This document shows positions 1-64,000 of a stretch of DNA of 64,000 nt, piece by piece (position 1 is the first letter of the stretch; every line of letters begins with the position of its first letter). The DNA is from a virus (Duplodnaviria; Caudoviricetes), in the IMG/VR virus record IMGVR_UViG_3300020365_000001, one strand, 5' to 3'. The notes beneath the pieces are model-generated. The model worked only from the letters and a program-made list of their open reading frames with translations. It had not been told where the DNA came from and did no database searches. The translations under genes were made by a program, and so were the position numbers.

Positions 1-1
1 C

Positions 2-565
2 GTGGTCCTTGTACAACCTATAGAACATATCACAATCCATGAGCATAGTCAACTCCTCATCAAAGTAGATGCCCAGGTTGTTACGGACGGCAAGGATGGA
101 AGGGGAACTCAGGGTGTTGACACCTTCCAACAATTTGCTGTTCCACACAGGAGTCTTAGGATTGTAATGAGTCTTACCATCATCCAGAGTATGAGCAAAT
201 CCTGTGACTGCCCACTCAACTTTAGGTTCTAGAAAAGCATTGATCAACTCTGCATTGAGATTCCTAGTAAGAATCATATCGTCAGAGAAGATGATCTTTA
301 GAATGCCTCGGTCTGCCAACCGCATAGCAGAGTTGGTATTGGCAGAAATATTTCCTCGGTCATCTTCATTGCGAACGTAATTGATCTCAAAAAGATCATC
401 ATACTCTTCGCATGCCTGCAAGACTTTGTTAGAGGAACCATGATCAGACACCCACACATTGAAATCCATGTCTGTCTGTAGAGACAGGGCATGAAAAATA
501 TCAAACAAATACTGCTGGCACTTTGGATTTTTATCGTGCGTCGGGATGCAATAACTTACAGACAT
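2..565 (-). CDS. Glycosyltransferase family 2-like protein, 3' end outside the window
   Basis: Hand-translated from ATG 565 (TAATG overlap): MSVSYCIPTHDKN...VWVSDHGS...KIIFSDD; GT-A N-terminus with a DD motif. Not in the ORF track. Confidence 0.75.
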   Translation of the reverse strand, partial: MSVSYCIPTHDKNPKCQQYLFDIFHALSLQTDMDFNVWVSDHGSSNKVLQACEEYDDLFEINYVRNEDDRGNISANTNSAMRLADRGILKIIFSDDMILTRNLNAELINAFLEPKVEWAVTGFAHTLDDGKTHYNPKTPVWNSKLLEGVNTLSSPSILAVRNNLGIYFDEELTMLMDCDMFYRLYKDH

Positions 566-1353
566 TAGCGAAGATCGCTCATAATTTTTCTAGTGAGGCG
601 TGGAACCACATCGTTGTCACTATGGAATTGCTTTGCAATCTCATAGTTCTCTTCGATAGCATCCTTTCTCCAATCATACTTGTCTGCATCCAGATGTTTT
701 AGGATCAGTTCAAGTTCTTCCATATCATGGAAGACAATTACTCCGTCCATATTGAACCAGTCTCCTAGGTTAGGACAACCATAGTAGATGGGAACCGTCT
801 TTGATGCAAAGCAATCAATGACCTTCTCAGTAAAGTAGTTTCTCTGTCGAGAGTTCTCTACTGCGATATGGAACTTAGCATTCTCGAAGAAATCATTTCT
901 CCTCTCATGGAAGGGAGGAGATTTATGTGCATAATACTGGAGTCCATTTGAAACGTCAACATTTTTGAGCATTTCAAAAATTTCCAACCGCATACGGTGA
1001 CCCACAGTCTGATTCTTTTCACTGGTCACAAAGGTAACGTTGTTACCCTTGTCAAGAATCAAATCCTTGAAGTCCAACCAACTAGATCCCCACTCAAAGA
1101 GTTCGGCCTGTGGATATTTCTCTAGGATTTTTTCAGTGAACGTGTAGATCTTGTCGAACTGATACGCACTACGGAGTGCACCCTCAGTCACTGTAGGTAA
1201 GATAGAATATGGTTCTGCCAGGAACAGGATTTTATAATCCGCCCGCACATCATAATCTAAGTTATCGATCGAGATGCTTACACTTTTATCACCCAGGTCA
1301 AGATTCTTATCTTGCCATGGGTTCCACCACAGAGGATAATATTTTACTGTCAT
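565..1353 (-). CDS. GT10 (alpha-1,3-fucosyltransferase)-like glycosyltransferase
   Basis: KFHIAVENS...YFTEKVIDCFASKTVPIYYG matches the GT10 donor-binding motif. Confidence 0.75.
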   Translation of the reverse strand: MTVKYYPLWWNPWQDKNLDLGDKSVSISIDNLDYDVRADYKILFLAEPYSILPTVTEGALRSAYQFDKIYTFTEKILEKYPQAELFEWGSSWLDFKDLILDKGNNVTFVTSEKNQTVGHRMRLEIFEMLKNVDVSNGLQYYAHKSPPFHERRNDFFENAKFHIAVENSRQRNYFTEKVIDCFASKTVPIYYGCPNLGDWFNMDGVIVFHDMEELELILKHLDADKYDWRKDAIEENYEIAKQFHSDNDVVPRLTRKIMSDLR

Positions 1354-2021
1354 CGTATGTCTTGGAAATGATAATGAAAACCGAAGGTCTCAATACCTTC
1401 ATGCTCTGGGCACTCTACCTCTTTAGAGAACCTAGCGGCAACTTCCACTGGTGCAAAGACGCATCCTTGCTCCTCAAAAATATGCCGGTTGTGGACACAA
1501 ATGTTGCCGTCCTCATTATATAGTCCGGCATTCATATGCTTATAGAAGTCTCCCTGATTGACTTCCCAGGGTACAGTTACACGCGAGGGGACCTGTAGTA
1601 ACTTTCTGGAACGTAAGGAAAATCCCCCATTCCCAACCCGTTGGTTCTTACCCCAGGGGTCGAGGAAGGCATTTGGATCGTCTCTCCAGGGGGCACCGAT
1701 GTAGTCGTACTGTAACCACGAACTATCCCAAAGCCAAGGTCGAATAACAAAACCGTCAGGATGGATAAGGAGGCAATGCGTGGACTGAATATGATTGATA
1801 AGGTTATATATACAATAAAAATTGAAATCATTGATGCTTTGAATTGGATAGGTTTCCTCATACTGTGCTTGGTCGCAGAGACCTTCTGGTCTCCCCTTGC
1901 TGCCAAGAAATTTGACAGCACCCCATTCAATAGACTCACATGATTTATTTACCGCATAGACAGCTTCAGGAATGTCAACATCTGCTAGCATAAGCAGCGT
2001 GACTTCAGGAATTTTTAGCAC
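1350..2021 (-). CDS. DUF5672-type putative glycosyltransferase
   Basis: YDYIGAPW and VGNGGFSLRS motifs. Confidence 0.75.
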   Translation of the reverse strand: MLKIPEVTLLMLADVDIPEAVYAVNKSCESIEWGAVKFLGSKGRPEGLCDQAQYEETYPIQSINDFNFYCIYNLINHIQSTHCLLIHPDGFVIRPWLWDSSWLQYDYIGAPWRDDPNAFLDPWGKNQRVGNGGFSLRSRKLLQVPSRVTVPWEVNQGDFYKHMNAGLYNEDGNICVHNRHIFEEQGCVFAPVEVAARFSKEVECPEHEGIETFGFHYHFQDIR

Positions 2022-2922
2022 GTTGCACCGCTCGGTTGAATACTGGGTATAAGTCTAGCAGATTTATGTCGATATTTCTAGCCCTGTCATATAAGTCTTC
2101 GGCATCGAACAGCAGGGTCTTATTGATCTTACCAAAGTCATCAACCCATAGGACCGGGTAGTCTTTATATAATTCTTGCAGGTACTCATCCTTCAGCATG
2201 ATAGGAACACGCTTCAGGTACAGCACCTCCCAGTTCCTATGACAGTCCACAGCATTACCCTGCGGACAGATCATGAACTTATGGTCTTGTAGTTCCCTGA
2301 TATACTCTCGGTATCCTTGTCGCTGTCCGACTGTAGCGTACGAGATTCCACTAAACATCTCACGGATGTTGCCACGGACACTGAGGTTAGTGTGCTCTGA
2401 GTGATTGATGTACAGAAGTTTTCTGGGTCTAGGATCTTCTTCCATTGCTTCCAACAGAAGAGTGTGTCTATGATCTTCTTCATGTAGTTTCCTGCCGACA
2501 CCATAAGGAAAAGAATAAAGTTTCTCTTTGAATCCTATTGCGTTTGCTGCAAAGATACCCAGCACATTGTCTGGAATATCTATGTCCTCTTCTACAGGAG
2601 TGTCCTCATTATTGCAAAAAATTATGAACTTCTTGTCAAGGGAAGCACATAATTTTAGCAGGTCATTCTTCTTCAGTAGGTCATCAACCCACTTCTGATC
2701 ATTAGCATTATTGCATACGATCTTTCTATTATATAATCTAATGTTATCAATAAAGAGAGTCATGATCTCCTTATCAGTCTTAGACACAAGGTCAAGAAAC
2801 TCTTTGTTCTTTTTGCTGGCGACTTTCATGAAAGACCCATGCACTTGACCTATGACCCCTGCCTGATCTCCAAACGTATAGTCACAATGGTTTGCTACTC
2901 CAGGTCCGTGGATCAATTTCAT
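2005..2922 (-). CDS. Exostosin/GT47-like glycosyltransferase
   Basis: KFMICPQGNAVDCHRNWEVLYLKRVPI motif. Confidence 0.65.
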   Translation of the reverse strand: MKLIHGPGVANHCDYTFGDQAGVIGQVHGSFMKVASKKNKEFLDLVSKTDKEIMTLFIDNIRLYNRKIVCNNANDQKWVDDLLKKNDLLKLCASLDKKFIIFCNNEDTPVEEDIDIPDNVLGIFAANAIGFKEKLYSFPYGVGRKLHEEDHRHTLLLEAMEEDPRPRKLLYINHSEHTNLSVRGNIREMFSGISYATVGQRQGYREYIRELQDHKFMICPQGNAVDCHRNWEVLYLKRVPIMLKDEYLQELYKDYPVLWVDDFGKINKTLLFDAEDLYDRARNIDINLLDLYPVFNRAVQRAKNS

Positions 2923-3767
2923 AGTGCTTTCACAAACTTCTTCAGTTTACGATTCTTCTGAGACCGGACATACTTAGGGAAGGTCTCATCAATCTCTACA
3001 ACAGTTGGTTGATAGAGATATGTTCTACCATATGGGTCCAGGTTCTGCTCGATCCTATCCTCCATGCTGGAACGGAACTCTTCCAAGTTGTTTTCTTGGT
3101 GCTCATAGGCATCCATCTTCTGACGCACAGTGTCAGCATCACCAAAGAAACTCCAGTGCCATGATGCATTGGCAAGTTTGTATGCATCCTGGTGTGACTG
3201 ACGGAGTTTGTCAACACTCATACTCTTCAGTGTCTTGAAGTCACACACTCGTGTGCCCATCCACTGCTCTTCACACTTCACATTGAGGTAGTAATAGAAC
3301 AGAGGACCTGTCAAGACATAGTGATGGTTAGGATCGAACCACTCATCCATACACTTCAGTGCTTCAGGGTTCGCGATCTCGTCAGCATCACTTGTAAGGA
3401 TGATGTCGTCGTCCTCTGCCTTATCTAACAGACCATAAATTGCACTGTCCTTATGAAAGCATGCCCGCTGGTATGGCAGTGGCAGTTGATAGATGTTCTC
3501 TTCCAACATGCTCCTGTGATAAGGAATGTCAGAATAGTATGCCTCAAAGGTTTTGTTATCGTCGATGGTGACGTGGTGGATAATTTTATCCTCCCACTTC
3601 TTGAACCGCTTACGATTCTCTTGGAAGAAAAGTGGTTTGGGTTTACCAGTAAAGGTAATGTTTGCCTCATTGATAACAAAATAGTCCACCGAATCTCCGA
3701 GGATGTTCATCCTCAGTTCCAGTAGATCTAGTTCATTATAAAAAGTAAATACGTCGAAGATTTTCAT
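2919..3767 (-). CDS. GT17-like beta-1,4-N-acetylglucosaminyltransferase
   Basis: FYNELDLLELR, FTGKPKPL, SDADEI and WHWSF motifs. Confidence 0.8.
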   Translation of the reverse strand: MKIFDVFTFYNELDLLELRMNILGDSVDYFVINEANITFTGKPKPLFFQENRKRFKKWEDKIIHHVTIDDNKTFEAYYSDIPYHRSMLEENIYQLPLPYQRACFHKDSAIYGLLDKAEDDDIILTSDADEIANPEALKCMDEWFDPNHHYVLTGPLFYYYLNVKCEEQWMGTRVCDFKTLKSMSVDKLRQSHQDAYKLANASWHWSFFGDADTVRQKMDAYEHQENNLEEFRSSMEDRIEQNLDPYGRTYLYQPTVVEIDETFPKYVRSQKNRKLKKFVKAL

Positions 3768-4306
3768 GGACGATAATTGATGTTCAAGGTGAATCTAACA
3801 CCAGTAGTTGGAGAAGAACTGGAATGATATTGCTTTCCGTCAAAAGTAACCATCTTACCTCGTTCAGGAGACTCTCTATGAATAACATTTTGATCTCCAT
3901 CAAAGAAGAATGTATCGCCGTCAGCATCATTGGGATAATATAATCCTACAATGTGTGGGCGGTCATCATCTACATGTGAGTTGTGTGGAACACCGAATGC
4001 TTCTGGTCTTGGATATTGTAAGGTCATGTGTGACCTAATCATTGGGTTGTTAGGCATCCCAATCTCTTGACCAATAGAGTTCCAAGGGAACTCGCGAAAA
4101 TATGGTGAGATGTTTCCATCTACACTCAGCAAAGTAGAACTGAAGTATGGATTCATCACCGTCCGTAGAGGATGATCACGGTTTCCATAAGCACAGTCGT
4201 CAAAGTAATAATATGGTAGTTTCTTACACAGGTTTTCAATCTGTGCTACTAACCTATTACTAAGTTTATGCCTTGTAAGAAAAGAGGAGTTCTCTTTGCT
4301 CATCAC
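3764..4306 (-). CDS. 2OG-Fe(II) oxygenase-like protein
   Basis: HVD...LYYPNDADGDT...FDGKQYHSS...R facial-triad pattern; start uncertain. Confidence 0.7.
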   Translation of the reverse strand: MMSKENSSFLTRHKLSNRLVAQIENLCKKLPYYYFDDCAYGNRDHPLRTVMNPYFSSTLLSVDGNISPYFREFPWNSIGQEIGMPNNPMIRSHMTLQYPRPEAFGVPHNSHVDDDRPHIVGLYYPNDADGDTFFFDGDQNVIHRESPERGKMVTFDGKQYHSSSSPTTGVRFTLNINYRP

Positions 4307-9846: not shown

Positions 9847-10205
9847 ATTAGCATGTCTAGTAGGGGCATTTTTTGTGTACGACCATAATCATCTTCTAGT
9901 CGTACGATGTCACGTTCTTTACAGGTACCACGTTGAACCTCAAAGAACGTTAGTCCTTGATCATGTGCCTTTGCACGATGCCGCTGTTCAATGCCAATGG
10001 TAAAGGTAGAACCAGGATGGCATTCTACCTCACAGTTGCCCTGTGTAATGAGACCAGAACCTTCTATGACAATCCAGTGCTCTGTTCTATGTCTATGGAA
10101 TTGGAGAGAAAATCTTTGCCCTGGTTCGAGATGAATTTTCTTCACTAAGAAATCATCACCTCTTTCAAGTAATTCAAACCAACCCCAGGGTCGGTATTCT
10201 CTCAC
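9843..10205 (-). CDS. Mannose-6-phosphate isomerase type II cupin domain
   Basis: RPWG, SLQFHRHRTEHW, EVQRG, DIVRLEDDYGR. Confidence 0.9.
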   Translation of the reverse strand: MREYRPWGWFELLERGDDFLVKKIHLEPGQRFSLQFHRHRTEHWIVIEGSGLITQGNCEVECHPGSTFTIGIEQRHRAKAHDQGLTFFEVQRGTCKERDIVRLEDDYGRTQKMPLLDMLI

Positions 10206-18802: not shown

Positions 18803-19130
18803 GTCGCTGGGATCCAATAAAGCTTTCCGCATCGAGGACAACGAGAGGTCGTCTGCCATTCTTTTTTATAAAGAGGATTGGTTCGTAATCACCAGAGTTG
18901 GCACACGCCTGGTCATATGCATCCCAGACGTTTAGTCTCTCTGTGTTCTTGCATTCTACACTGAAAGGGAACTTTTGTCTAGCTGCACGTGCCATGATGA
19001 TGTCTTCACCACCAGCACCCATAGATCTAGACTCTACATCCTCAGGATGTACTTCCAACATTTCTATAAGTTTAGTTCTAACCCACTGTTGGAGTCTTCT
19101 ACCCTTAGCCTTAGCAGACTGAACCCTCAT
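18795..19130 (-). CDS. PD-(D/E)xK Holliday-junction-resolvase-like endonuclease
   Basis: SAKAKGR, GEDI...SVECKN. Confidence 0.75.
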   Translation of the reverse strand: MRVQSAKAKGRRLQQWVRTKLIEMLEVHPEDVESRSMGAGGEDIIMARAARQKFPFSVECKNTERLNVWDAYDQACANSGDYEPILFIKKNGRRPLVVLDAESFIGSQRHE

Positions 19131-19785
19131 TACCTAGTCGTTCACTTACTATATCTATAACATATTTCGCTATCGTCTTATGACCTTCTACAGAAGGATG
19201 TCCATCGTAAGGTATTCTATCAAAAACTAATCCTGTTCTACTTGATTGCATCCCTAAGTGCATATCATACTTGTTATCAGTTTCGTGAGGGTTCAGCAAT
19301 GTACTAAAGAAAGATCTTTCCAATCGTCCCACAGATGCAAGGTAAGCCTTGAATGAGTTGTATACAACAGTTTCTTGAGTTCTTGCCCCATAATCACTGT
19401 ACATCCTACTAAATCTAAAATCTATCCAATCTGCAAACTTACGTCCATCTACAAGTCCCCACCGTTCTATACATTTAGATTCTAAACCAACATAATCCGA
19501 TAAACTATATCTCATCCACCTTTTCTTTCTATCATCATAAAACTCACCTCTGATAGGAACGGTGGTTTGTAGAAAATAAAAGTCATAAACATTAGTAGTA
19601 GGTTTATGAAACAGGTTTCTCATAACTGTTTCATTACAAGCACCACAAGAAGATGCGTTTATTTCCTCAGCACCAAAGTGATCACAGACCAACTTTGACC
19701 AGCGATATTTGGTGGGGTCAAGGTGAAGTATGTTACCTAATCCACCACCATAGGTGAGGGAGTCCCCATCAAAATAAAATTTCAA
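19111..19785 (-). CDS. SGNH/GDSL hydrolase-like protein (AT-rich insert)
   Basis: FDGDSLTYG near the N-terminus and DGHPSVEGH near the C-terminus; TTG start inferred. Confidence 0.7.
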   Translation of the reverse strand: MKFYFDGDSLTYGGGLGNILHLDPTKYRWSKLVCDHFGAEEINASSCGACNETVMRNLFHKPTTNVYDFYFLQTTVPIRGEFYDDRKKRWMRYSLSDYVGLESKCIERWGLVDGRKFADWIDFRFSRMYSDYGARTQETVVYNSFKAYLASVGRLERSFFSTLLNPHETDNKYDMHLGMQSSRTGLVFDRIPYDGHPSVEGHKTIAKYVIDIVSERLGNEGSVC

Positions 19786-19931
19786 TCTTTGATACCCTTG
19801 ATTTTTTTCCACTTGTTATGCATTGCCTGAAGGTGCCAAGACTGTGACAGACTCTTGGCACCTTCCTCCAATACTTTTAGATCTCTTGGATCACTAGTGT
19901 ACTTCTTATAATCTTCTCTCCAATTTGTCAT
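19782..19931 (-). CDS. Small hypothetical protein (49 aa)
   Basis: Hand-translated MTNWREDYKKY...EGAKSLSQSWHLQAMHNKWKKIKG; ATGA-coupled to nrdB. Confidence 0.7.
   Translation of the reverse strand: MTNWREDYKKYTSDPRDLKVLEEGAKSLSQSWHLQAMHNKWKKIKGIKD
19829..19865. repeat. 13-bp perfect inverted repeat
   Basis: GAAGGTGCCAAGA-11 nt-TCTTGGCACCTTC. Confidence 0.9.
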
Positions 19932-29493: not shown

Positions 29494-29692
29494 TGATTTT
29501 TCGTAAGATCTCGGAATTATTATTTTGAACAAACACCATCAGTGGCGTCTGATACTGTTTATATTTATCTTGTGTCTGCAAGATGCAGTATAGAAACCTT
29601 TGAAAGTCTTCGATACGTTTCCTGTTTGTCATCCTACGTTTACCATAGTTCTCTGCGTAAACGTCGATAGCACTATCCAAAAAATCAATCAT
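29390..29692 (-). CDS. Hypothetical protein
   Basis: ATGA-coupled to the upstream gene; overlaps the downstream gene by about 100 nt. Confidence 0.5.
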   Translation of the reverse strand: MIDFLDSAIDVYAENYGKRRMTNRKRIEDFQRFLYCILQTQDKYKQYQTPLMVFVQNNNSEILRKISEKVLIFHNRSKDHQGIPGSTATGIGRGRSRRLV

Positions 29693-30618
29693 CGTGGGTC
29701 TCCTGATAGTTTCATAGCACCGGAAAATTTGTAGGACTTGAACTTGTAGCGTATGTTGAACAGTGCAGTGGACCCAGCGTTGACAGTGATACTGTTTTTA
29801 CCTGCCTTGACAAACGTGATGCGTTTCGTATTGATAGCATCCATTTTGCTGTTGGCAAGTGGGTCCATTCCAACAGCATTATAGCGTCCTTTCTCCCCGG
29901 ACCCTGTTATTTTGAGGTATGGTGGGTATGCATTTGTTGCATCTAACCAACTACTAATAAGATATTGCCTACGTTGCTGTTGACTGACGATGTTATTGAG
30001 TTTGGCAAAGAGTTGATCCCTACAATAAGTCTCAACCTCAGACCCCTTCTCATTCAAAATTTTGTAACGCTCATCACCTGACTCTTTCCACCTCCTCATC
30101 TGCAATGTTCTATTTGCCTTAGTCATTCTGGCAAAGTCAGGGTAGTCCTCTAGTGCTTCTTCCTCTGCTGCTGCAATATAACCAGCAAGATTCAAACCTA
30201 GATCAGCATCAACTGTGCCCACACCAGGGTTTTTGAAACCAACGTCACCGGAGATAGTTGACTTAGCAGACAGTCCTAAGAATCCTCCCATGGCATACTG
30301 AACAAGAATGTCTGCGGGAAACTTTGTTTGATTTACTTTCACTCCTACTATGGGAAGGAAATCAAATCCAGGTTTGGCAGTCCAGTAGACAGAATCTATA
30401 ATTGTACCATATCCTTTTCGTTCTGCCATCTTGGTAAACTCTTTTACCATTGCTTCAGCACGACCTATCTGATCTTTATACTCTTGATCAGACAATGCTG
30501 TCTTCTTTCTATTGAAAGTTTGTTCAGTTATACGATCAGGAAACTGATCTCCGTTCAACAAATAAGCACACCAAATTTCATTTACGTCCGCTAACCTGGT
30601 GTTGTCTCCTCTTGTCAT
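29689..30618 (-). CDS. Putative PD-(D/E)xK-like (PD...SxK) endonuclease
   Basis: NE helix (DVNEIW) and PADILV...GLSAK. Confidence 0.5.
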   Translation of the reverse strand: MTRGDNTRLADVNEIWCAYLLNGDQFPDRITEQTFNRKKTALSDQEYKDQIGRAEAMVKEFTKMAERKGYGTIIDSVYWTAKPGFDFLPIVGVKVNQTKFPADILVQYAMGGFLGLSAKSTISGDVGFKNPGVGTVDADLGLNLAGYIAAAEEEALEDYPDFARMTKANRTLQMRRWKESGDERYKILNEKGSEVETYCRDQLFAKLNNIVSQQQRRQYLISSWLDATNAYPPYLKITGSGEKGRYNAVGMDPLANSKMDAINTKRITFVKAGKNSITVNAGSTALFNIRYKFKSYKFSGAMKLSGDPR

Positions 30619-31775
30619 TACACCATAGTTTTAGTATCCTCATCTGTTATATATCCATTCCCATCCATACGTTCAACATCTGGAGTATTAGATCCAAAAG
30701 TTTTTTTGATGACTGCAATGTAATCATCATTGAGTTCCAAACCAGTGACTGTCTTTTGAAAATTTACTCCCTCCTTTGTGCGTTCTCTATTTGCAGAAGG
30801 AGTTTTTAGTTTATTGTCTCTATAGAATGCATCTCCATTGCTCTCATAGATGTATTTTTTTGATGCCCACTTATACTCCCGCAAATCTCGCCATGCACTA
30901 TTGGCAGTTTGATGAGTGATAGACCAACGTTGCCAGTTAGGAGTATCAAAGAATGCCCAAACGTTTTCCTCAGGTTCTACTGGGTGCAAATTATATTGCT
31001 TAGCACATCTTAGTGTAACGTACTGATACTTTGCCATAAAACTCCATGCCCAATGCCATTGCTTTAGATTTGGATTCTTTGTATTCAGTACCACCGAGAC
31101 GCACTTGTCAAGTATCTTGATATTTCTTTCAGGGGTATTCTCTCTAAAGCATTTTTCACGTTCTTCTTCATTGTATATAAAAACCCTACCCGTACCATAT
31201 ATTTGATCACCTACTTCACCAGTAACGAAAAAGTTATTTGGATCATTGACATATGGAGTAAGGCATTCATCTGGTTTATTGTTTGATCCAGAACAAATGT
31301 GAGAAGTCAGAGGAGAAGTAGGATCTATATCTGTATGAGCATGTTGAATGGGTGTTGCGAGACTGTGCTTCATAATATCCTTGTAACCAGTCTCACACTC
31401 GGCTATAGATCCAGCATCAAAGTGAACTTGAAAAGGAACTTCTGCTCTAATGAAAGCATATAACGCTACTGTGCTGTCAATTCCACCAGACCACAGTAGG
31501 TTTATTGTTCGGCCACGTGCTTTCTCTACCAGGATCTCAACAGCGTCTGCACACACCTCTTCCACGGTCATCTCCGTGAAGAAGTTATCAGGCATTGGTG
31601 ATATGATTTTATAATTACGCTTAGTCTTTAGTTTTCCAGCTCTACATACAAATCTGGTTTGATAATATCGATCAATATATAATTCATCTGGGTAAAAATT
31701 CTTTTCTATTAGTCTGGGGATACCATGGAAAGATCTAGGTAAATACTCCGCCCCCCAATGCCAGTCAGGATGCAT
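30618..31775 (-). CDS. PP-loop (adenine nucleotide alpha-hydrolase) protein, asparagine-synthase-C-like
   Basis: LLWSGGIDST, VTGEVGDQIYG, YKWASKKYI. Confidence 0.75.
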   Translation of the reverse strand: MHPDWHWGAEYLPRSFHGIPRLIEKNFYPDELYIDRYYQTRFVCRAGKLKTKRNYKIISPMPDNFFTEMTVEEVCADAVEILVEKARGRTINLLWSGGIDSTVALYAFIRAEVPFQVHFDAGSIAECETGYKDIMKHSLATPIQHAHTDIDPTSPLTSHICSGSNNKPDECLTPYVNDPNNFFVTGEVGDQIYGTGRVFIYNEEEREKCFRENTPERNIKILDKCVSVVLNTKNPNLKQWHWAWSFMAKYQYVTLRCAKQYNLHPVEPEENVWAFFDTPNWQRWSITHQTANSAWRDLREYKWASKKYIYESNGDAFYRDNKLKTPSANRERTKEGVNFQKTVTGLELNDDYIAVIKKTFGSNTPDVERMDGNGYITDEDTKTMV

Positions 31776-31792
31776 AATATATCGATAGGTAC

Positions 31793-31819
31793 AAAAAAAC
31801 CGGGGTATGACCCCCGGTT
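31793..31819 (-). terminator. Intrinsic terminator after the TRAP binding-protein gene
   Basis: AACCGGGG-GTCATA-CCCCGGTT followed by a T-run. Confidence 0.85.
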
Positions 31820-31844
31820 ATTTATTAGGATGTGAGCGATAAGA

Positions 31845-32789
31845 TCACTTGGTGTTCTTGATACTATCAATCAAACCATCAGAGAACATGTCTGAGAACT
31901 GATCATACAGGTATGCAGTTGCATCCTTGAAACGACCACGCTCTGCGTCAGACATGGTGACAACAGTGATGTCTTCTTCTTTACACTGAGATTTCACAAC
32001 ATCGATGTCTTCAACAGACCAGACACGCTCAGCACGTGCTGCGTCGAAGGACGCTGCTTCGATTTTTCCTTTCAACTCTTCGTCAAGAGTTTCCCAGAAG
32101 TCGCTTGCAACGATGATGGAAGTAAGGAAGAGACTATGCTCTGCGTCATTGATGGTATCCATGCACTCGTTTTGCTTCAGACCGAAGAAACGAGGATAGG
32201 TAGACTCACCACCAACAATCTCACCATCTTGGACACCCTCATTGATCTGCTCAAGTTCAATGGGGACGGGGATTGCACCAACTGCTTTCAGGGTTTCCTG
32301 AGCAATGGGTGATTTGTTACAACGAAGGCGGACGCCTTCAAAATCTTCAATTGTGTGCAGTTCCGTGTTAGCAGGGATCATGCGGAAACCACCAGAATAG
32401 GTGAAGGCAAGACCCTGAACATTGGAATCCTTATTTAGTCCGTCGAGGAGAGATTTTCCAACCTCACCTTCCAGGACATTTTTCGCGTGGTCGTGATCAC
32501 GGAACAAGAAAGGCATATCAAGTGCCCACATGTCCCGGTGATGCTTCCTACCAAGTGTAGACGTATACATCTGCGACATCTCTACCTCACCATCCTCCAT
32601 GAGTTGGAGGAGGTCATGTTTGGTGATGGTAGCACCGCCCTTGTACTTATCTGAATACTCAGAAAGGGTCAGAATTTCAACGTTTAGTTCTCCAGGAGCA
32701 CACGCTTCCATGGAAGCTTTGAAACGCTTTGCTGCTCTGAGGAACAATTCAATCGGTTCATGGGCTAGAACCCAGCGAATTGTTTTCAT
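31845..32789 (-). CDS. TRAP transporter substrate-binding protein (DctP family), no signal peptide
   Basis: LDMPFLFRDHDHA, GGFR, IEDFEGVRLR, GAIPVPI, VQDGEIVGGE. Confidence 0.85.
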   Translation of the reverse strand: MKTIRWVLAHEPIELFLRAAKRFKASMEACAPGELNVEILTLSEYSDKYKGGATITKHDLLQLMEDGEVEMSQMYTSTLGRKHHRDMWALDMPFLFRDHDHAKNVLEGEVGKSLLDGLNKDSNVQGLAFTYSGGFRMIPANTELHTIEDFEGVRLRCNKSPIAQETLKAVGAIPVPIELEQINEGVQDGEIVGGESTYPRFFGLKQNECMDTINDAEHSLFLTSIIVASDFWETLDEELKGKIEAASFDAARAERVWSVEDIDVVKSQCKEEDITVVTMSDAERGRFKDATAYLYDQFSDMFSDGLIDSIKNTK

Positions 32790-32814
32790 CGGATATTATA
32801 CAGGATTACAGATG

Positions 32815-32822
32815 TATTTATA
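32815..32822 (-). promoter_or_regulatory. T4-type late promoter TATAAATA
   Basis: Exact consensus about 25 nt upstream of the DctP-like ATG. Confidence 0.8.
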
Positions 32823-32831
32823 AGTATGTGA

Positions 32832-33086
32832 TCAGATATACACGCGATCACCATCGGCAGTCGTACGACGCTGCCAGTCGTTACGGTTCCACAGACGTTC
32901 GTGGAGGATATACAGAGTGGAGTTGATGACAAGTGCCATCAGACCGATAGTCAGACCCTTCCAGGGGTTACCAGAGACGATCCAACCAATCACAGAGTTG
33001 GTCACCATCATCCAGGAACGCCAGGTAACAGCTTTGGTCACGGTACGAGGAAAACGCTCGAACCACTTAGGGGATGCAAAGGACAT
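32832..33086 (-). CDS. DUF2061-like small membrane protein
   Basis: RTVTKAVTWR...LYILHERLW motifs around two hydrophobic segments. Confidence 0.8.
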   Translation of the reverse strand: MSFASPKWFERFPRTVTKAVTWRSWMMVTNSVIGWIVSGNPWKGLTIGLMALVINSTLYILHERLWNRNDWQRRTTADGDRVYI

Positions 33087-33153
33087 TTTGTTGCTACAAA
33101 AAATTACAGGTATTACATGACGATCTTTACTGAGGCGGCATCACTCCTCGTTT

Positions 33154-33840
33154 CTACACCCAGTATTTTACTATCGGATGAACTTGTTCGTCAAGTTCAT
33201 GATTCTTTGGATACTGGTGGAGCAGAGCAATTGATTTATTTGCTCTTAGTGTGAAACTATTCAATTGGTTAGGAGACTCACCATCTCTATATGAGTAGAT
33301 ACAGTGAGGAAGTTGAGTTCTTTTTACTTTTTCATTATGATAAAAGTCGTCTGTTCCTGCGTACTTCGCCACAAATTCTCGTGGAGACTGCATGAAATAT
33401 TCGTAAACTCGCGTTGCGTCTCTCCAAACAATTACTGATGAATTATATAGTGATTTGCGTGGGTTACGCATTTTGAATGGGACGCCCTTCCAAGTAGAGT
33501 AGACTAATGCGAACTCTGCATCATGATCAAGAACCTCAGTTATATCACCATGTATGATGACATCTAGATCAAAAAAGATCTTTCTTTCGTAGGTAGAAAT
33601 ATCAGGATGGACAAACATTTGGATCTTCCACCATGCTGCCCACCAGTTCTCCCACGTTAGGTATTCGGTTACGTCAATAGGGATGACGTTTACCTCTGAG
33701 TTGATGTCTGATGCGTCGTCTGTGAAGCAATAAAAGGGTGCATCGGTTTGGAGACGCACCATATTATAAAGCTTGTTTACGTACTGTGCATCAAATTTGT
33801 CACCGATCTTGATGCAGGTGATGCAGTAATCAGATGTCAC
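33154..33840 (-). CDS. Glycosyltransferase-like (DxD) protein
   Basis: YVNKLYNMV, FYCFTDD, FFDLDVII, YNSSV; GTG start inferred. Confidence 0.7.
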   Translation of the reverse strand: MTSDYCITCIKIGDKFDAQYVNKLYNMVRLQTDAPFYCFTDDASDINSEVNVIPIDVTEYLTWENWWAAWWKIQMFVHPDISTYERKIFFDLDVIIHGDITEVLDHDAEFALVYSTWKGVPFKMRNPRKSLYNSSVIVWRDATRVYEYFMQSPREFVAKYAGTDDFYHNEKVKRTQLPHCIYSYRDGESPNQLNSFTLRANKSIALLHQYPKNHELDEQVHPIVKYWV

Positions 33841-37932: not shown

Positions 37933-40428
37933 TTAGACAAAGAAAAGATCCAGAGTTGCCTGCCTTTCAACAGACCACCCGATAGCATCTAACACCGCCT
38001 TGAGTGGTTCAAGGAATGCTTTGTCAAACATCAAATTATAGTCAACATACTGCGTTAGACCGAGTTCTTTAGGGAAATCACCAGTAAAAGAGATAACGTT
38101 CTCTTGGATTGTGTTCGGTTTGGTGAGATAACAGAACTTGATCTTGTCTCCGTTGTTGATAGCACTATATTTAGATCCAAGATCTGCCTTCTTGATATAG
38201 TGATTGAATAGAAGTGCACCCCTCACATGGATAGGTGTGCCCTTGGCGTAGATAGACAGATTACTCTTGTACTTATCTACATTGTTGCATGATCTAGGGA
38301 ATGAGACAGCAGCAGGATCCATTTTTCTGAACTCCCGACGCATGTCCTCAATATAATTGATAACATCCACCTCAGTCTTGCTCATGATGATCTTCAGAGC
38401 ATCTTTGATCATCTGACGACAAGGTGCAGGAGTCGATGACTTGACTGCTTCAATGCCCATGATCTTGAGTTTGGGTTCAGCAAACCTCACACCCTCAATA
38501 TCCCATGCGTTGAGGATGTATCGCTTCTTAGCGGTCCAAATACCACGTTCAGCGATAGTCTCCCGCTTCATGAACATCTTCTGTTCGTATGCGTTCACAT
38601 AGGTCGCCAACGCTTCATAAGAACTCGAAATATACTTCTCAAGTTCCATCGAACAGACCTTATCAAGGAAATCGACAATGCCTTCAGTAGTTTTTTCTCT
38701 CCCTTTGTATACAGTTTCGACCAGAGGACCCATATTGAGATAGATAGAGTCAGTGTCACTGGCAATAACATAGTCTTCACCCTCAGTTTTCAGGATTTTG
38801 TTGAGATACTGGTTCATTCTGTTCTCAATCCAGCGGATGCTGAACTGACCAGACAATGTAATCGCTTCTGCGTTTGCTAGTTTGTAATAGCGGAAGTAAT
38901 TGTTACCAATAGCACCATAAGCAGAGTTGAGTTGGATCTTCTTTGCCATCTGGATGTTGTTACACCGGGCAATCTCCTTCTCTAAGTCCTTTGTAGGATT
39001 CTTTTCATACTCTTGCTTCGCCTTGAGCATCTTCTTCTTGAAGACCACCCGTTCACTGTAGATTTTCTCCATAAGTTTGGGAAGGAATCCCCTAACTTTC
39101 TTAGTAAACTGTGCTCCGTTGGGACATACAGTGGTATCTGTCAGTCCAGACAGGTCTACTTCTTCATTCAGGAGTTTATCAACACTGACGTTAGGGTACC
39201 TGTCATCTAGCAGAGTCTCGGGAGAGATGTTGTACTGCATGATGAGGTGCGGATACAGAGAGTTCAAGTCAAAACTTACAACCCACTCATAGATGCCAGG
39301 GATAGGTTCTTTTACATATGCGCCAGCATATTTTTCGTTCTTGTTTGCATCTTTCTTGGGAGGAATGACAATACCCTTCTTCTTCAGGTCGTTATAGATG
39401 ATCATATCCCACATCCGCACCTGGTAAAACACATCGGTGAAGTTCACCTTAGCGTCAAATGCCATGGTGACTGCCAGTTCAATGAGTTTCATCTTCTCCT
39501 CAAGGGAGTCAACCAGTCTCACGTCTTGGATGTTATACCTGACAAACTTTTGCCAGTCTTTTGTGTAGAACTCGCGGAAGGTGTCAAACTCACTGTGGTC
39601 AAGTTTCTTCTGACCAAGTTCAACCTCTCCAATATAGTCCAATCTATAACTTTCTTGTGCCTTGTACGTAAATTTCTTGTACAGGTCCATGTAGTCAAGC
39701 ACTGTGACCCCACCGATGTCATACACCAAGTGTGGACGACCCATGATATAGGTCTCTTCAGAGGTCAGTAGATTCCACGGAGACAGTTTCTTTGCTTGCT
39801 TCTCGCCCAGGACACGAGCAATCCTCTTGGCAAGGTATGGGATGTCATACAGTTGGCAGTTCCATCCAGTGATGACCTCAGGAGGGTCACTAGACCAGTA
39901 GTTGATGAAGTGCTGCAACAAATCATACTCATCGTTGCACTCCACATACTTGACCATGGGATCGGTGTTGTGATACTTACCGATACCAAAGGTCAGGATG
40001 CGTTTTGTAGCATAGTTCTGAAGGGTGATGCACAGCATCTCCTCGTCACATGCCTCAACAGTAGGGAATCCTCGTTCTGCTGACACCTCAATGTCAATAG
40101 TAACGAGTTTCATCTTCTTCAGATCAAAGTCGATCTGATCTTCAGGATACTTATCTGAGATGTACTGATAGATATACCGATTGTTCCCATAGATGTCAAA
40201 GTTCTCTACGTTCTCGTGGGTACGTACAAACTCACGACATTCTCTGACTGTTCCAGGTTGTATGCTCTGGACATATCGTCCATCGAGCGTCTTGAATTGT
40301 GTTTTCTTCTTGCTAGGTACAAATAATGTAGGTTGGTAACTCTCTCTGGCAGTGAATGATTTACCGTTTTCATAACCACGGACCAGAAAGTCGTTCCCGA
40401 CCATCTGAACGTTCGTGTAATACCTCAT
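37933..40428 (-). CDS. gp43: Family B DNA polymerase (T4 gp43)
   Basis: DIEV exonuclease, SFDLNSLYPH, KIQLNSAYG, SDTDS; uninterrupted. Confidence 0.98.
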   Translation of the reverse strand: MRYYTNVQMVGNDFLVRGYENGKSFTARESYQPTLFVPSKKKTQFKTLDGRYVQSIQPGTVRECREFVRTHENVENFDIYGNNRYIYQYISDKYPEDQIDFDLKKMKLVTIDIEVSAERGFPTVEACDEEMLCITLQNYATKRILTFGIGKYHNTDPMVKYVECNDEYDLLQHFINYWSSDPPEVITGWNCQLYDIPYLAKRIARVLGEKQAKKLSPWNLLTSEETYIMGRPHLVYDIGGVTVLDYMDLYKKFTYKAQESYRLDYIGEVELGQKKLDHSEFDTFREFYTKDWQKFVRYNIQDVRLVDSLEEKMKLIELAVTMAFDAKVNFTDVFYQVRMWDMIIYNDLKKKGIVIPPKKDANKNEKYAGAYVKEPIPGIYEWVVSFDLNSLYPHLIMQYNISPETLLDDRYPNVSVDKLLNEEVDLSGLTDTTVCPNGAQFTKKVRGFLPKLMEKIYSERVVFKKKMLKAKQEYEKNPTKDLEKEIARCNNIQMAKKIQLNSAYGAIGNNYFRYYKLANAEAITLSGQFSIRWIENRMNQYLNKILKTEGEDYVIASDTDSIYLNMGPLVETVYKGREKTTEGIVDFLDKVCSMELEKYISSSYEALATYVNAYEQKMFMKRETIAERGIWTAKKRYILNAWDIEGVRFAEPKLKIMGIEAVKSSTPAPCRQMIKDALKIIMSKTEVDVINYIEDMRREFRKMDPAAVSFPRSCNNVDKYKSNLSIYAKGTPIHVRGALLFNHYIKKADLGSKYSAINNGDKIKFCYLTKPNTIQENVISFTGDFPKELGLTQYVDYNLMFDKAFLEPLKAVLDAIGWSVERQATLDLFFV

Positions 40429-52234: not shown

Positions 52235-52240
52235 GCTGAT

Positions 52241-52287: not shown

Positions 52288-52478
52288 TAGTCGTCGTCGA
52301 TGAATCTGGCACACTTGTCAGGATTCTGCTTGCACCAATTCCGGACGTACGAATCGGCATCGACTTCCATGCTGTAGTGGGCGTGATTGTGTAGGATACC
52401 TACTATAAGTAGACACCCCACGGTAAGAACATTGATCTGAACCAAAGGGTTCAAGAATGCTTTGAGGTAACGATGCAT
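52284..52478 (-). CDS. Small membrane protein
   Basis: TM then HNHAHY...DADSYVRNWC. Confidence 0.7.
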   Translation of the reverse strand: MHRYLKAFLNPLVQINVLTVGCLLIVGILHNHAHYSMEVDADSYVRNWCKQNPDKCARFIDDDY

Positions 52479-52480
52479 AC

Positions 52481-53368
52481 CTATGCTCGAACTCCACTAG
52501 TATACCACGTGCTTGGTCTGGGTCCACAGACTGTCTCGTACTCCTGATAGACCCACTGCATACGCTCAAATGCATACTCTCTATCACTGTCTGTCAGGAT
52601 CTGTAGGTCAGACTTCTGATGCCCTTCAGTCACATGTCCAGAAGTATATCCATTGTCGTACAGGATGCCCACAGGATACCCCACAAACTCCTCTAGACGT
52701 TCTAGTTGATTGCTATGCCCATACCATAGGTCTTCCATGATTACAGGCATCACATGGGTAAATGCCTTTGCCCATGTGTGATAGATCCTGGCATAACTGG
52801 GTGTAACTTTTTGATTGTTACCTTCTAGTTGAGACTTCCAGTAGCGAATGCTGGTAGGAAATTTCTTACGAATCATTCTCCAGTGAGCATAGAACTTGAA
52901 GTTCTCATGCTTATTTCTAGTGGAAAACTTTTCCCATGTAGTGCCCTTAGATTTTCCCAACGCATACTTGCTGTACTCATCCGATGCATGAGAATATGAT
53001 CTATCGACTGGATCTCTCCAGATCATAGTGACACGAACATCAAACTCTTCTTGTAAGATGGGTGCAATTTTTAGAAGGTAATCTAGACTTATACTACTGT
53101 TACTATTTGAAAAATCTAGATACCCACCAGAAGATTTCACGTTAGAGATATAATCTCCAAGTGTTACATCCTTTTCAAAGTTTTGATTCATTGAATCAAA
53201 ATACTCATTTGCTTTTATCGGATCTGCATCCAGTAAAAACAAATAGTAAAGGATGTTAGGTTCAGTATAAAATCTTCTTTTTTTGTAGTGACTCTTATTG
53301 AGACTATAGGCGAACGGTTTCGTGCCGGAGTACGGTTGTCCGACATTTATATGAAGTGATGGTTTCAA
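52481..53368 (-). CDS. Sulfotransferase-like protein (AT-rich insert)
   Basis: GQPYSGT (5'-PSB-like) and WRDPVDRSYS (3'-PB-like). Confidence 0.6.
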   Translation of the reverse strand: MKPSLHINVGQPYSGTKPFAYSLNKSHYKKRRFYTEPNILYYLFLLDADPIKANEYFDSMNQNFEKDVTLGDYISNVKSSGGYLDFSNSNSSISLDYLLKIAPILQEEFDVRVTMIWRDPVDRSYSHASDEYSKYALGKSKGTTWEKFSTRNKHENFKFYAHWRMIRKKFPTSIRYWKSQLEGNNQKVTPSYARIYHTWAKAFTHVMPVIMEDLWYGHSNQLERLEEFVGYPVGILYDNGYTSGHVTEGHQKSDLQILTDSDREYAFERMQWVYQEYETVCGPRPSTWYTSGVRA

Positions 53369-54024
53369 CAGTCCTTAGAATAACCCTCAGCAACTTTACC
53401 GCCAATCTCAGAACCTTTGTCTTGGGTGAAGATAGCAACTAAACCACCAAGCACAGGTCCGATGTAGGGAATACCGATAACACTGGAAGCAACGCCTGCA
53501 CCGACGCTAGCTCCCACAACCCTTCCCGTCTGTTTGCCACCACCTACCGCCTCGATACACGCGACGCTTTTCTGGTTTGCACTGCCGGTACTCCCGTCTA
53601 ACTTTGGGAGCGGACCTCCTTGCATATTCAAAGTCCCCTCCATAGTGTATTGCTCATTCGTAAAGGACTGTCTCGCTTCTCGGGACATCTCCCGACCACC
53701 ACCAAACAAACCTCCAGGTTTATCGATATCTTGATGAAGGTCTAAAGATTGTGTTCTTTCAAGAACTTTTGGATCGTTAGAGTTGTATCTAACTTTATAT
53801 CCATCGCTACTTACCGTAGCCTCGTATGAAGAGTATTCGCTTACTGGTAGATTTAGATTGGGAAGTTGTGCTTTCTTATTAGCCAACAATCCAATCAAAG
53901 AAATGTGACTAACCCCAAGTACAGTACCCAGTGCCAGAGCAATCCACTTCATGGGATTAGACTGCTTAGGATTCTTTTCAGTAATGGTTACAGTCGCAGT
54001 ATTGTCATCTTTGGCGTCAAACAT
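53365..54024 (-). CDS. Membrane protein with glycine-zipper C-terminus
   Basis: N-terminal TM; GRVVGASVGAG; CTAAATA at 54045-54051. Confidence 0.75.
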   Translation of the reverse strand: MFDAKDDNTATVTITEKNPKQSNPMKWIALALGTVLGVSHISLIGLLANKKAQLPNLNLPVSEYSSYEATVSSDGYKVRYNSNDPKVLERTQSLDLHQDIDKPGGLFGGGREMSREARQSFTNEQYTMEGTLNMQGGPLPKLDGSTGSANQKSVACIEAVGGGKQTGRVVGASVGAGVASSVIGIPYIGPVLGGLVAIFTQDKGSEIGGKVAEGYSKDC

Positions 54025-54060
54025 AACAGGCTAGCTTTGCAGCTTATTTAGCAAGGACAC

Positions 54061-54084
54061 AAAAAAAGGGACCTTTCGGTCCCT
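54061..54084 (-). terminator. Intrinsic terminator after the beta-barrel genes
   Basis: AGGGACC-GAAA-GGTCCCT followed by a T-run. Confidence 0.9.
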
Positions 54085-54099
54085 CCTCTTGAGCATTTA

Positions 54100-54468
54100 T
54101 CAGAACGAGTACTTCGTTCCGAACTCAACCTTCCAAGAACGAGTATCGTTCTCTTTGAAGGTGTTGATCCACTTACCGTAACCAGAGAGACTGTCAGTGA
54201 TCTTCACGCCGGTACCGACTTGAATCACGCTGAAATCCTCTTCTGCTCCAGTGTTGTCGCTATAAGCACGACCAACGCCACCTTCCACATAGGGAGTGAA
54301 GCGACCAAGCTTCTCGCCGTAACCGACGCGAACTTGGTGGGTACCTTTGGAGTAGTCGTCGTCAACACCGACGAACTCGTGCTTGGTCTTTACATAAGGA
54401 CCAGCGAATGCGGGAGCAGCAGAGAGGGCAGCTGCACCGGCAGCAAGGGCGATTGCAAATGCTTTCAT
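54100..54468 (-). CDS. Small outer-membrane beta-barrel-like protein
   Basis: Signal peptide, AGPYV, alternating strands, C-terminal KYSF. Confidence 0.8.
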   Translation of the reverse strand: MKAFAIALAAGAAALSAAPAFAGPYVKTKHEFVGVDDDYSKGTHQVRVGYGEKLGRFTPYVEGGVGRAYSDNTGAEEDFSVIQVGTGVKITDSLSGYGKWINTFKENDTRSWKVEFGTKYSF

Positions 54469-54505
54469 TTTACTTATGGAAATTATTGATGTACTATCGG
54501 TTCGA

Positions 54506-62995: not shown

Positions 62996-63173
62996 ACATG
63001 AGAATCTCTTTGCAAATCCTTTTGCACGATCCCTGTGTCTCGTCACATTCAATCAGACACTCATAGTAGTCGTTCAATAGAGTCATCCTCGCTTCGGTTT
63101 CCTCTAAACTTTCTACTGATTTTTCTAAACGACCCCATTCAGTCAATTGGTTGCTGGAGAGTAAATTACGCAT
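62994..63173 (-). CDS. 59-aa protein with Cx3C-x6-Cx3C motif
   Basis: Hand-translated MRNLLSSNQLTEW...NDYYECLIECDETQGSCKRICKEILM; has its own promoter and terminator. Confidence 0.8.
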   Translation of the reverse strand: MRNLLSSNQLTEWGRLEKSVESLEETEARMTLLNDYYECLIECDETQGSCKRICKEILM

Positions 63174-63293
63174 AAGAATTCTTAGAGACTACATTGCTGG
63201 TCTTTCACTTCATGGCATCTCCGTAATGCTCAGTATATAGACTTGTTTGTGTTAGTTCACTAACATTTGTAATTTCGTTACAAGACTTTAGAC

Positions 63294-63321
63294 AAAAAAA
63301 AGGACCCCCGAAGGAGTCCTT
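63294..63321 (-). terminator. Intrinsic terminator after gp23
   Basis: AGGACTCC-TTCG-GGGGTCCT followed by a T-run. Confidence 0.9.
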
Positions 63322-63340
63322 GTAAGTATGTGAACCGTGA

Positions 63341-64000
63341 TCACATGAGGTTTTGGACCTTGACCCGACGATAGTAGGTGTTGGAACCAGCGGTGATACG
63401 ACCAAGACCCTGAGTAGTGCCTTCAGCGTAGGGGTTCGAGACCATGCCGTAGCGGGTCTTGAATCCGATCTTGGGCTGGAAGGTGTCCTGACCAACGGCA
63501 CGCACCATTTGCAGGGGCACGTAGGGGCAATAGAACAGACCAGCGTCATAAGGGTTAGAACCCTTGTAACCCATCACGTAGTATTGATCGGCGCTGAGGT
63601 TGGCAGCGAAAGGATCAATGTAGACGCGATAGCGACCGTTCATCACACCAGCGAAGGTGTTACCGGTGTCATCAACGTTCAGGTTGCTGTTGAGAGCAGG
63701 GGTGTAGTCCAGTTGACCAGCGGCGGTCAGAGCAGAGGCAACATCAGCGGAGCAAAGGATGATGTTACCCTTCCCGCGACGAGTCTCTTGGGCGATTGCG
63801 TTAGCGTCACGCTCCAGACCGAAGATCATACCCTTGAACTTCTCAACCATCCAACGTCCGTTGGAGTCGGTGTCGAGGTCGAACACGCCAGAGGTGGCAG
63901 TGTTGGTTTGGGCACCAGGCTTAGCAGCCTTGTAGATGGTACGGATGATCTCGCGGTTGATCTCAGCAAGAATCTCAGTGCTGAGGATGTTAGCGAGTTC
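63341..64000 (-). CDS. gp23: Major capsid protein (gp23), 5' end outside the window
   Basis: ELANILSTEILAEINREI, RRGKGN, YCPYVPL, FQPKIGFKTRYG. Confidence 0.98.
   Translation of the reverse strand, partial: ELANILSTEILAEINREIIRTIYKAAKPGAQTNTATSGVFDLDTDSNGRWMVEKFKGMIFGLERDANAIAQETRRGKGNIILCSADVASALTAAGQLDYTPALNSNLNVDDTGNTFAGVMNGRYRVYIDPFAANLSADQYYVMGYKGSNPYDAGLFYCPYVPLQMVRAVGQDTFQPKIGFKTRYGMVSNPYAEGTTQGLGRITAGSNTYYRRVKVQNLM

Follow-up and report, generated by a model that had tools for sequence, protein, structure and literature searches.

TTAA in the window and in its lineage

The DNA analysed here, called the window throughout, is a stretch of 64,000 nucleotides from IMG/VR record IMGVR_UViG_3300020365_000001, whose source is, judged from its sequence, an uncultured T4-like cyanomyovirus. 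The analysis concerns two features of this phage (the window phage), namely the lack of the palindrome TTAA in its DNA and a gene pair for a PD-(D/E)xK nuclease and a methylase remnant, located ca. 64.1–65.2 kilobases (kb) before the start of the window (Table 1). A preliminary description made by eye had claimed that TTAA is wholly absent from the window, and this was borne out by direct counting, which yielded 0 copies on both strands over the full 64,000 nucleotides. At the measured guanine-plus-cytosine (GC) fraction of 0.440, in agreement with the earlier estimate of about 44%, base composition predicts 391 copies, a first-order model 263 and a second-order Markov model, which takes in the frequencies of TTA and TAA, 150; a few hundred copies had originally been expected. 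The Poisson probability of finding none when 150 are expected is ca. 1e-65, and 100 dinucleotide-preserving shuffles of the window gave 262 ± 14 copies with a minimum far above zero.

From the 100 open reading frames (ORFs) called in the window, 77 genes were used for a permutation of synonymous codons within each gene, with the proteins and the codon usage per gene held fixed. The 200 shuffles contained 206 ± 10 TTAA and never fewer than 179, compared with 0 observed. No TTA codon in these genes is followed by A (0 of 109), no codon junction of the type xTT/AAx occurs and none of the 22 TAA stop codons is preceded by T; TTAA is avoided through synonymous choice in all three frame contexts. 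An origin in codon, trinucleotide or dinucleotide bias, which the preliminary description had considered beside the possibility of a count near expectation, is ruled out by the Markov, shuffle and synonymous-permutation tests. The avoidance extends to the 2.7 kb of intergenic DNA (0 TTAA, 10.8 expected), to the 14.4 kb of the window that lack a DNA-level counterpart in G001, as the nearest complete relative is called here (0, 32 expected), and to three AT-rich stretches with GC fractions of 0.38–0.41 (together 0, ca. 10 expected; Table 1). The intergenic DNA and the AT-rich stretches had been correctly described as TTAA-free. Words one mutation away from TTAA are mildly enriched by factors of 1.14–1.31 (TTAC 1.31, TTAT 1.26, TTAG 1.19, TTGA 1.14). 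The lost TTAA are therefore spread over all neighbouring words and not converted into a single replacement, which excludes a systematic miscall. The absence of TTAA is thus confirmed as real and far beyond what chance or codon bias would produce.

The remaining palindromes of four base pairs (bp) are all found in the window, as had been claimed, and GATC (400 copies; observed/expected ratio, O/E, 0.95) and CTAG (163 copies; O/E 0.94), which had appeared common, are present at normal frequency, as are AATT, ATAT and TATA. The preliminary description had also listed late-promoter variants that never take the form TTAAATA. Indeed, TTAAATA does not occur and CTAAATA (14 copies) and ATAAATA (8 copies) do, together with 10 copies of GTAAATA, but TATAAATA, named as another such variant, is present only once.

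The TTAA content of the relatives was graded by comparing eighty IMG/VR loci around the DNA polymerase gene. Five loci with polymerases 83–84% identical to that of the window and GC fractions of 0.41–0.45 contain no TTAA; pooled with the window, they amount to 119 kb with 0 TTAA and ca. 309 expected. Most other loci at 76–84% polymerase identity have O/E values of 0.05–0.45, and a few loci at 76–80% and all of those near 70% are at ca. 1.0 (pooled 2126 of 2174 expected). In 31 control cyanomyovirus loci the mean O/E is 0.98. The absence of TTAA is a lineage trait which is graded among the relatives.

The DNA upstream of the window was reached by a contig walk of seven exact-protein matching steps, whose contigs overlap at 99.8–100% identity; the window matches the initial contig (L082) at 99.98% identity and the chain ends in L096. 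The 68 kb gained in this way contain no TTAA, each locus on its own expecting 31–69. A strain termed G002 (112 kb, 97.4–98.8% identical) extends a further 55 kb upstream and is likewise free of the word (Table 2). We infer that the genome is roughly 190 kb long and that the window makes up its final 64 kb; if so, ca. 187 of the 190 kb of this phage species have been checked and are TTAA-free. The TTAA-free lineages include ones in which synonymous sites are saturated (synonymous divergence, dS, of 1–2), and all of them still have none. As the window alone holds 3,760 words that are one mutation away from TTAA, the zero count at such divergence indicates that selection continually removes newly arising sites. 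The strict and ongoing selection postulated at the outset is supported by this result and by the purged flexible and intergenic DNA.

The nuclease and the methylase remnant

The genes of the nuclease and of the methylase remnant overlap by 4 nucleotides. Asp73, Glu82 and Lys84 of the nuclease are invariant in 30 homologs, corresponding to the PD-(D/E)xK triad, and are also kept in 16 more distant ones; the 30 homologs share, in addition, the blocks FRWQQIR and NQHGG. Distant homologs (32–37% identity) are present in the cultured Synechococcus phages S-ShM2, S-RIM14, S-SSM2 and S-BM3. The AlphaFold model has a mean confidence (predicted local distance difference test, pLDDT) of 92.5, and its best matches in the PDB are the sequence-specific PD-(D/E)xK endonucleases I-Ssp6803I, NhoI, EcoRV and PvuII, none of which is close (expectation values 1e-4 to 8e-3, template modelling scores 0.3–0.5). 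A model of two copies scores 0.65, the best of 3 controls 0.02; among proteins of solved structure, 20 of 30 pairs of one chain attained this mark, compared with 1 of 23 single chains. The dimer runs agree in at least 89% of their contacts with a partner pLDDT of at least 88. The modelling supports a symmetric homodimer, which would fit a two-fold symmetric recognition site. Within the TTAA-free clade the ratio of nonsynonymous to synonymous divergence (dN/dS) of the nuclease is 0.07–0.23 at dS values of 0.5–2, as expected of a working gene under purifying selection.

No credible family for the nuclease was found in Pfam or NCBIfam, the 10 source clusters offered no useful names, and no member of the family is named after MseI; an NCBIfam match of 17.3 bits, against a cut-off of 60 bits, was dismissed as noise. 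Two pattern scans of ca. 185,000 prokaryote species genomes revealed no homolog, although distant relatives could escape such pattern-based scans. The Atlas clusters of the family are viral and unnamed, with RE_Bsp6I as nearest named neighbour (0.92), which we treat as a lead only. PD-ExK proteins of the phages ACG-2014f and S-SSM4 were rejected as family members; the WQQIR and NQHGG blocks are missing from them, and TTAA is little or not depleted in the genomes concerned (O/E 0.68 and 0.98). A promoter scan around the nuclease gene gave 8 sites compared with 6.5 in shuffled sequences and thus no excess. A longer form of the nuclease with 276 residues (P0013, P0024 and P0031, on metagenome contigs of up to 153 kb) carries an N-terminal extension of ca. 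100 residues.

The methylase remnant has EPPP (EPPS in a sister lineage) in place of DPPY as motif IV and DIFMGDGDT as motif I. Compared with an intact relative of 41% identity, ca. 10 residues are gone after motif IV and ca. 35 in a segment that includes the HPTQKP region. The methylase of the window phage is therefore degenerate, and the phage does not possess a complete restriction-modification operon. No copy other than the degenerate one was seen in the window phage, the part of the genome covered by the ca. 98% identical strain lying outside the search for Pfam family PF01555.

Gene state and TTAA content

TTAA content was compared with the state of the methylase in 58 viral contigs that encode a nuclease homolog. 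No TTAA occurs in any of the six carriers with nucleases 76–99% identical to that of the window phage. In three of them the methylase is degenerate (L099, L100, L104) and in two it is absent (L101, L103); the sixth contig (L102) ends 58 bp past the nuclease gene and is uninformative in this respect. Nearly all carriers with nucleases of 40–58% identity have an intact methylase of 250–280 residues directly downstream, with the motifs DPPY and D.F.GSGST, an arrangement which by its sequence features corresponds to a standard restriction-modification operon of a nuclease and an N6_N4 methylase. Their TTAA O/E values lie between 0.01 and 0.75, nearly all of them being depleted. A second N6_N4 methylase (289–319 residues, motif SPPY) follows the DPPY methylase in L105, L106, L111–L113 and L143.

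When all words of four letters were scanned in the carriers of the most distant homologs, TTAA turned out to be the most depleted one (0.34), followed by a word at 0.72; the controls are at 0.98. In the carriers with an intact methylase TTAA is second-lowest after AGCT, which is equally low in the control cyanomyoviruses. The depletion also reaches backbones that share few genes with cyanomyoviruses (0 of 41 expected in L136, 0 of 18 in L142, 2 of 31 in L155 and 17 of 102 in L147).

The larger genomes and contigs are compiled in Table 2. Grouped by gene state, the O/E of TTAA is 0 with a nuclease but no working methylase, 0.14–0.20 with both genes and 0.67–0.98 with neither. The GenBank entry of the S-BM3 nuclease ("restriction endonuclease", SBM3_00004; coding sequence at 19935-20432 of L157) starts ca. 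52 codons late; its frame is open from an upstream ATG, resulting in an intact, full-length homolog. As S-BM3 combines an intact nuclease with retained TTAA, a methylase was predicted for S-BM3, and none for S-ShM2, before either genome was searched for PF01555. Both predictions held: S-BM3 possesses an unlinked methylase of 250 residues with the motif DPPY, and none was found in S-ShM2 or in the complete G001. Among ten further carrier fragments searched for a methylase, the three that are free of sites contain none, and those retaining sites include two with a methylase-like gene above the cut-off (G005, G013) and one with a weak match (G014). The outcome agrees with the pattern in the informative fragments; three others, L154 and L156 among them, are 11–24% complete. 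The gene tracking the loss of TTAA, which the preliminary description had suggested looking for among related phages, is thus the nuclease, and its state combined with that of the methylase predicts the TTAA content.

Table 1. Features of the window and of the upstream contig L096. Positions refer to the window unless a contig is given; expected TTAA numbers are in the remarks.
Feature	Position	Strand	Remarks
PD-(D/E)xK nuclease P0001	L096:3539-4069	-	176 residues; no Pfam or NCBIfam family
Methylase remnant P0002	L096:2919-3542	-	207 residues; Pfam N6_N4_Mtase, E = 4e-27
AT-rich stretch	19100..19800		GC 0.38; TTAA 0, 3.7 expected
Flexible region without DNA match in G001	29570..33189		TTAA 0, 8.1 expected; contains the 30.6-31.8 kb AT-rich stretch and the DctP-like gene
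DctP-type TRAP-transporter solute-binding protein gene	31845-32789	-	Pfam 3.4e-40; in flexible region missing from G001
gp43-type DNA polymerase	37933..40428	-	marker for placing the phage and grading relatives by TTAA loss
Flexible region without DNA match in G001	52293..54503		TTAA 0, 6.2 expected; contains the 52.5-53.4 kb AT-rich stretch

Table 2. Gene state, TTAA content (observed/expected) and DNA polymerase identity to the window phage.
Phage	Nuclease	Methylase	TTAA	Polymerase
Window phage	yes	degenerate	0/150 (window)	
G002 (ca. 98% strain, 112 kb)	yes	degenerate	0/321	outside contig
G001 (192 kb, rated 100% complete)	yes	none	0/693	83.5%
S-ShM2 (NC_015281.1, 180 kb, cultured)	yes	none	0/586	59%
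S-BM3 (OQ319121.1, 169 kb, cultured)	yes	yes, unlinked	76/552 = 0.14	64.6%
G004 (133 kb)	yes	two, adjacent	114/574 = 0.20	82.6%
G003 (172 kb)	none	none	891/1322 = 0.67	78%

Other features of the phage

The ribonucleotide reductase and primase genes of the window have ca. 75% DNA identity to those of Synechococcus phages. No cultured phage has a DNA polymerase more than 69.8% identical to that of the window, while an uncultured single-cell "Marine virus" record reaches 76%. Many contigs of up to 177 kb from Tara Oceans, ENA and JGI carry exact copies of the proteins, and the phage is frequent in Tara Oceans metagenomes, with exact protein matches in 120–280 blocks of the collection. For the ORF in the AT-rich stretch at 19100..19800 Pfam provides a weak hint of a GDSL lipase at best.

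Directly upstream of the window lie psbA, psbD-type genes and genes for plastocyanin, ferredoxin, CP12, thyX and phoH. A glycan-synthesis island of ca. 20 kb comprises positions 1-10200 of the window and ca. 10 kb upstream (1-19220 of L081/L082) and contains glycosyltransferases of families 2, 10, 11, 17-like and 25, several epimerases or dehydratases, a DegT-type aminotransferase, a cupin and 2OG-Fe(II) oxygenases. Ca. 13–19 kb upstream of the window (13948-19531 of L084), precomputed Pfam labels indicate thyX, followed by split carbamoyltransferase genes (N, C and N domains) and radical-SAM genes.

Several further words are scarce. In the window GGCC (9 of 62 expected), GCGC (16 of 62), AGCT (42 of 140) and AGCC/GGCT are also depleted. 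RGCY words (AGCT, GGCC, AGCC/GGCT), which form the recognition site of CviJI, are mostly at 0.14–0.5 of expectation in nuclease carriers and in most non-carriers, the comparison comprising the window, G001, S-ShM2, S-BM3, G003, G004 and the control loci L050-L080; in the control loci, however, GGCC is near normal. This avoidance of RGCY is a second, clade-wide effect unrelated to the TTAA nuclease. CCGG is nearly gone from S-ShM2 (1 of 123) and absent from S-BM3, and GCGC is missing from G004 and reduced to 3 of 88 in intermediate loci. The window and its five closest relatives (L001, L002, L004, L025, L046) lack GACGTC (17 expected), GTCGAC (11) and TTCGAA (15).

Discussion

The comparative data favour, with a probability which we estimate at roughly three in four, a phage-borne TTAA restriction enzyme with self-immunity by loss of its site; the specificity for TTAA is deduced from the comparison of genomes. 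The nuclease would accordingly be a Type II restriction endonuclease of the homodimeric PD-(D/E)xK type, presumably cleaving TTAA as the word that tracks the gene. This corresponds to the second of two causes offered in the preliminary description, a phage nuclease specific for TTAA with immunity by absence of the site, of which the phage-borne enzyme and the mode of immunity agree well with the comparison of relatives and the cleavage specificity is read from the genomes. The absence of the site expected for a solitary enzyme is observed throughout, in the window, the 68 kb upstream of it, G002, G001 and S-ShM2.

Consistent with these data we propose a first scenario. The nuclease might have entered cyanophages within an operon of nuclease and methylase. 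As long as both genes work, unmethylated TTAA in the fast-replicating phage DNA would be a liability for self-cleavage and sites would gradually be lost; the O/E values of 0.01–0.75 in phages with both genes are taken as a sign of such a risk in incompletely methylated replicating DNA. Once no TTAA was left, the methylase would become dispensable and could decay, as suggested for the window phage, or disappear, as in some of its relatives. The phage would now be immune, its own genome offering no cut site, and selection would remove each new TTAA, which would explain why the window has none. TTAA-containing DNA in the infected cell, i.e. the host chromosome or a co-infecting phage, would then be cleavable. 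As use of the cutting we favour both the breakdown of host DNA and the exclusion of rival phages, two purposes that are not separable here. The cleavage site, the order of events and the purpose of cutting are thus parts of an interpretation, to which the coexistence of the respective stages in nature corresponds: operons with many sites, operons with few sites, and a dead or a missing methylase, in both cases without any site. Two of these stages are represented by cultured phages, S-BM3 and S-ShM2.

Some observations weigh against this scenario. The assignment of TTAA as cleavage site is based on a correlation between genomes, and the homodimer is a predicted pairing judged by model confidence. 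The dN/dS of the methylase remnant is 0.17 in the sole informative pair, which is odd for a dead gene; the remnant may retain some, perhaps non-catalytic, role. Two carriers of the most distant subfamily, L154 (65 of 74 TTAA expected, 0.88) and L156 (53 of 70, 0.76), show hardly any depletion, and no methylase turned up in these fragments, which are 11–24% complete; either the methylase is located elsewhere in their genomes or their nucleases differ in specificity. Moreover, phages with neither gene are mildly depleted (0.67–0.82), so that part of the TTAA effect may be general.

The strongest competing explanation is restriction by the host, the first cause named in the preliminary description. 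In this view an MseI-like TTAA restriction-modification system operates in the natural hosts, phages escape it by site loss or by a protective methylase, and the phage nuclease is a passenger with another role. The textbook explanation for palindromes missing from phage genomes is that sites are lost under pressure from the host (PMC6286503). The depletion of GGCC, GCGC, AGCT, CCGG, GACGTC and TTCGAA indicates that these phages seem to face several restriction enzymes, and the association of a methylase with retained TTAA fits a host enzyme and a protective phage methylase as well. The two interpretations are told apart solely by how phages lacking both genes behave and by the fact that the nuclease is conserved. 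On Synechococcus strain WH8102 as host, S-ShM2 has 0 of 135 expected TTAA, compared with 110 of 143 (0.77) in S-8S55 and 127 of 154 (0.82) in Sf-CH5 over stretches of similar length, both of the latter being devoid of the nuclease. Phages of the same host thus keep TTAA when they lack the nuclease, as do the 31 control loci, which disfavours host restriction, although marine host strains may differ from laboratory hosts. In addition, zero TTAA and the nuclease coincide in three separate full genomes from two distant lineages (polymerases 59% and 83.5% identical to that of the window phage), and the nuclease, normally found in an operon with a methylase, is under strong purifying selection exactly in the site-free genomes. 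The pattern scans of prokaryote genomes gave no homolog of the nuclease family, though hosts may have an unrelated TTAA enzyme. Altogether, we consider a host enzyme as the cause to be unlikely.

Avoidance of TTAA as the target of a mobile element, either a transposon or a homing nuclease, appears very improbable. Some transposons insert at TTAA or TA targets, and the best structural match of the nuclease, I-Ssp6803I, is a PD-(D/E)xK homing endonuclease. However, neither a transposase nor a repeat-bounded element lies beside the nuclease in any locus examined, and the usual partner of the nuclease is a DNA methylase, which points to restriction-modification rather than to transposition or homing; nor has insertion avoidance been seen to push a word of four letters to exactly zero across 190 kb. 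An artefact of sequencing or assembly, a misread base modification at TTAA or a mutational or codon bias, considered because an exact zero is odd but with nothing found in its favour, can practically be dismissed, because the zero is repeated in independent assemblies (ENA, JGI, Tara, IMG/VR) and GenBank isolates, the proteins are intact with TTAA dodged by synonymous choice in three frames, and AATT, ATAT and TATA as well as the TTAA of related phages are normal.

With a phage-borne TTAA nuclease as the preferred interpretation, a more general conclusion is probable, albeit drawn with less confidence: a widespread family of phage restriction enzymes would allow marine cyanophages with unmodified DNA to separate self from non-self by sequence, in that a 4-bp word is deleted from the genome, the methylase decays and the nuclease is kept for use against host and rival DNA. 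To our knowledge, the question of how T4-like cyanophages with ordinary bases safely destroy host DNA has found no clear answer so far; if the interpretation is true, immunity by site loss is one answer. It would then also be the most extreme known case of a genome reshaped by its own nuclease, with ca. 600–700 expected sites at zero in genomes of ca. 180–192 kb from at least 2 distant lineages, and with codon choice, stop codons and promoters constrained throughout. As the phage is frequent in Tara Oceans metagenomes, the effect may influence how ocean cyanophages compete and how nucleotides are recycled. The nuclease family may, furthermore, be a practical source of small 4-bp cutters. In the literature on TTAA or MseI avoidance, on S-ShM2 and on phage-encoded or solitary restriction enzymes, we found no description of a phage in which the complete loss of a 4-bp site goes along with an orphan nuclease of its own.

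Several known systems share individual elements with the proposed one. MseI cleaves T^TAA and thus recognizes the same sequence as deduced here; the partner methylases in the present case belong to the N6_N4 family (PF01555). T4 destroys host DNA by endonucleases II and IV (denA, denB), from which its own DNA is exempt through hydroxymethylcytosine. The window phage would resemble it as a T4-type phage with a nuclease against host DNA from which its own DNA is exempt; while T4 marks self by a modified base, the window phage would do so by sequence content alone, using ordinary bases.

Staphylococcal phage K lacks GATC. Avoidance of restriction sites by phages has been attributed to host enzymes (PMC6286503). 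The present case shares with host-driven avoidance that a short palindrome is absent or nearly absent from a large phage genome by way of synonymous changes, but there the enzyme belongs to the host, whereas here its gene is carried by the phage itself, and other phages that infect the same host but lack the gene are not purged.

Chloroviruses such as PBCV-1 encode small Type II restriction endonucleases with sites of 2–4 bp beside their cognate methylases; the presumed role of these nucleases is the breakdown of host DNA at an early stage of infection, and a methylase pseudogene persists in PBCV-1 after its nuclease was lost (PMC7019647). Virus-encoded pairs of nuclease and methylase and the decay of one partner are thus common to both systems. 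In chloroviruses, however, the viral DNA is protected by methylation and it is the nuclease that decays, whereas in the window phage, infecting a bacterial host, protection would be achieved by site loss, the methylase decays and the nuclease is kept.

PacI of Pseudomonas alcaligenes is a solitary enzyme without a methylase, tolerated because its own genome lacks the recognition site (PMC3488263). It provides the parallel of a restriction enzyme without methylase in an encoding genome that is free of its site. The 8-bp site of PacI consists of A and T only and is rare in a GC-rich genome anyway, so that its absence costs little. PacI is, moreover, a bacterial enzyme, while the cyanophage enzyme would be that of a virus with a 4-bp site, of which 590–690 expected copies are at zero. 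To keep hundreds of expected 4-bp sites at zero implies sustained selection at hundreds of positions.

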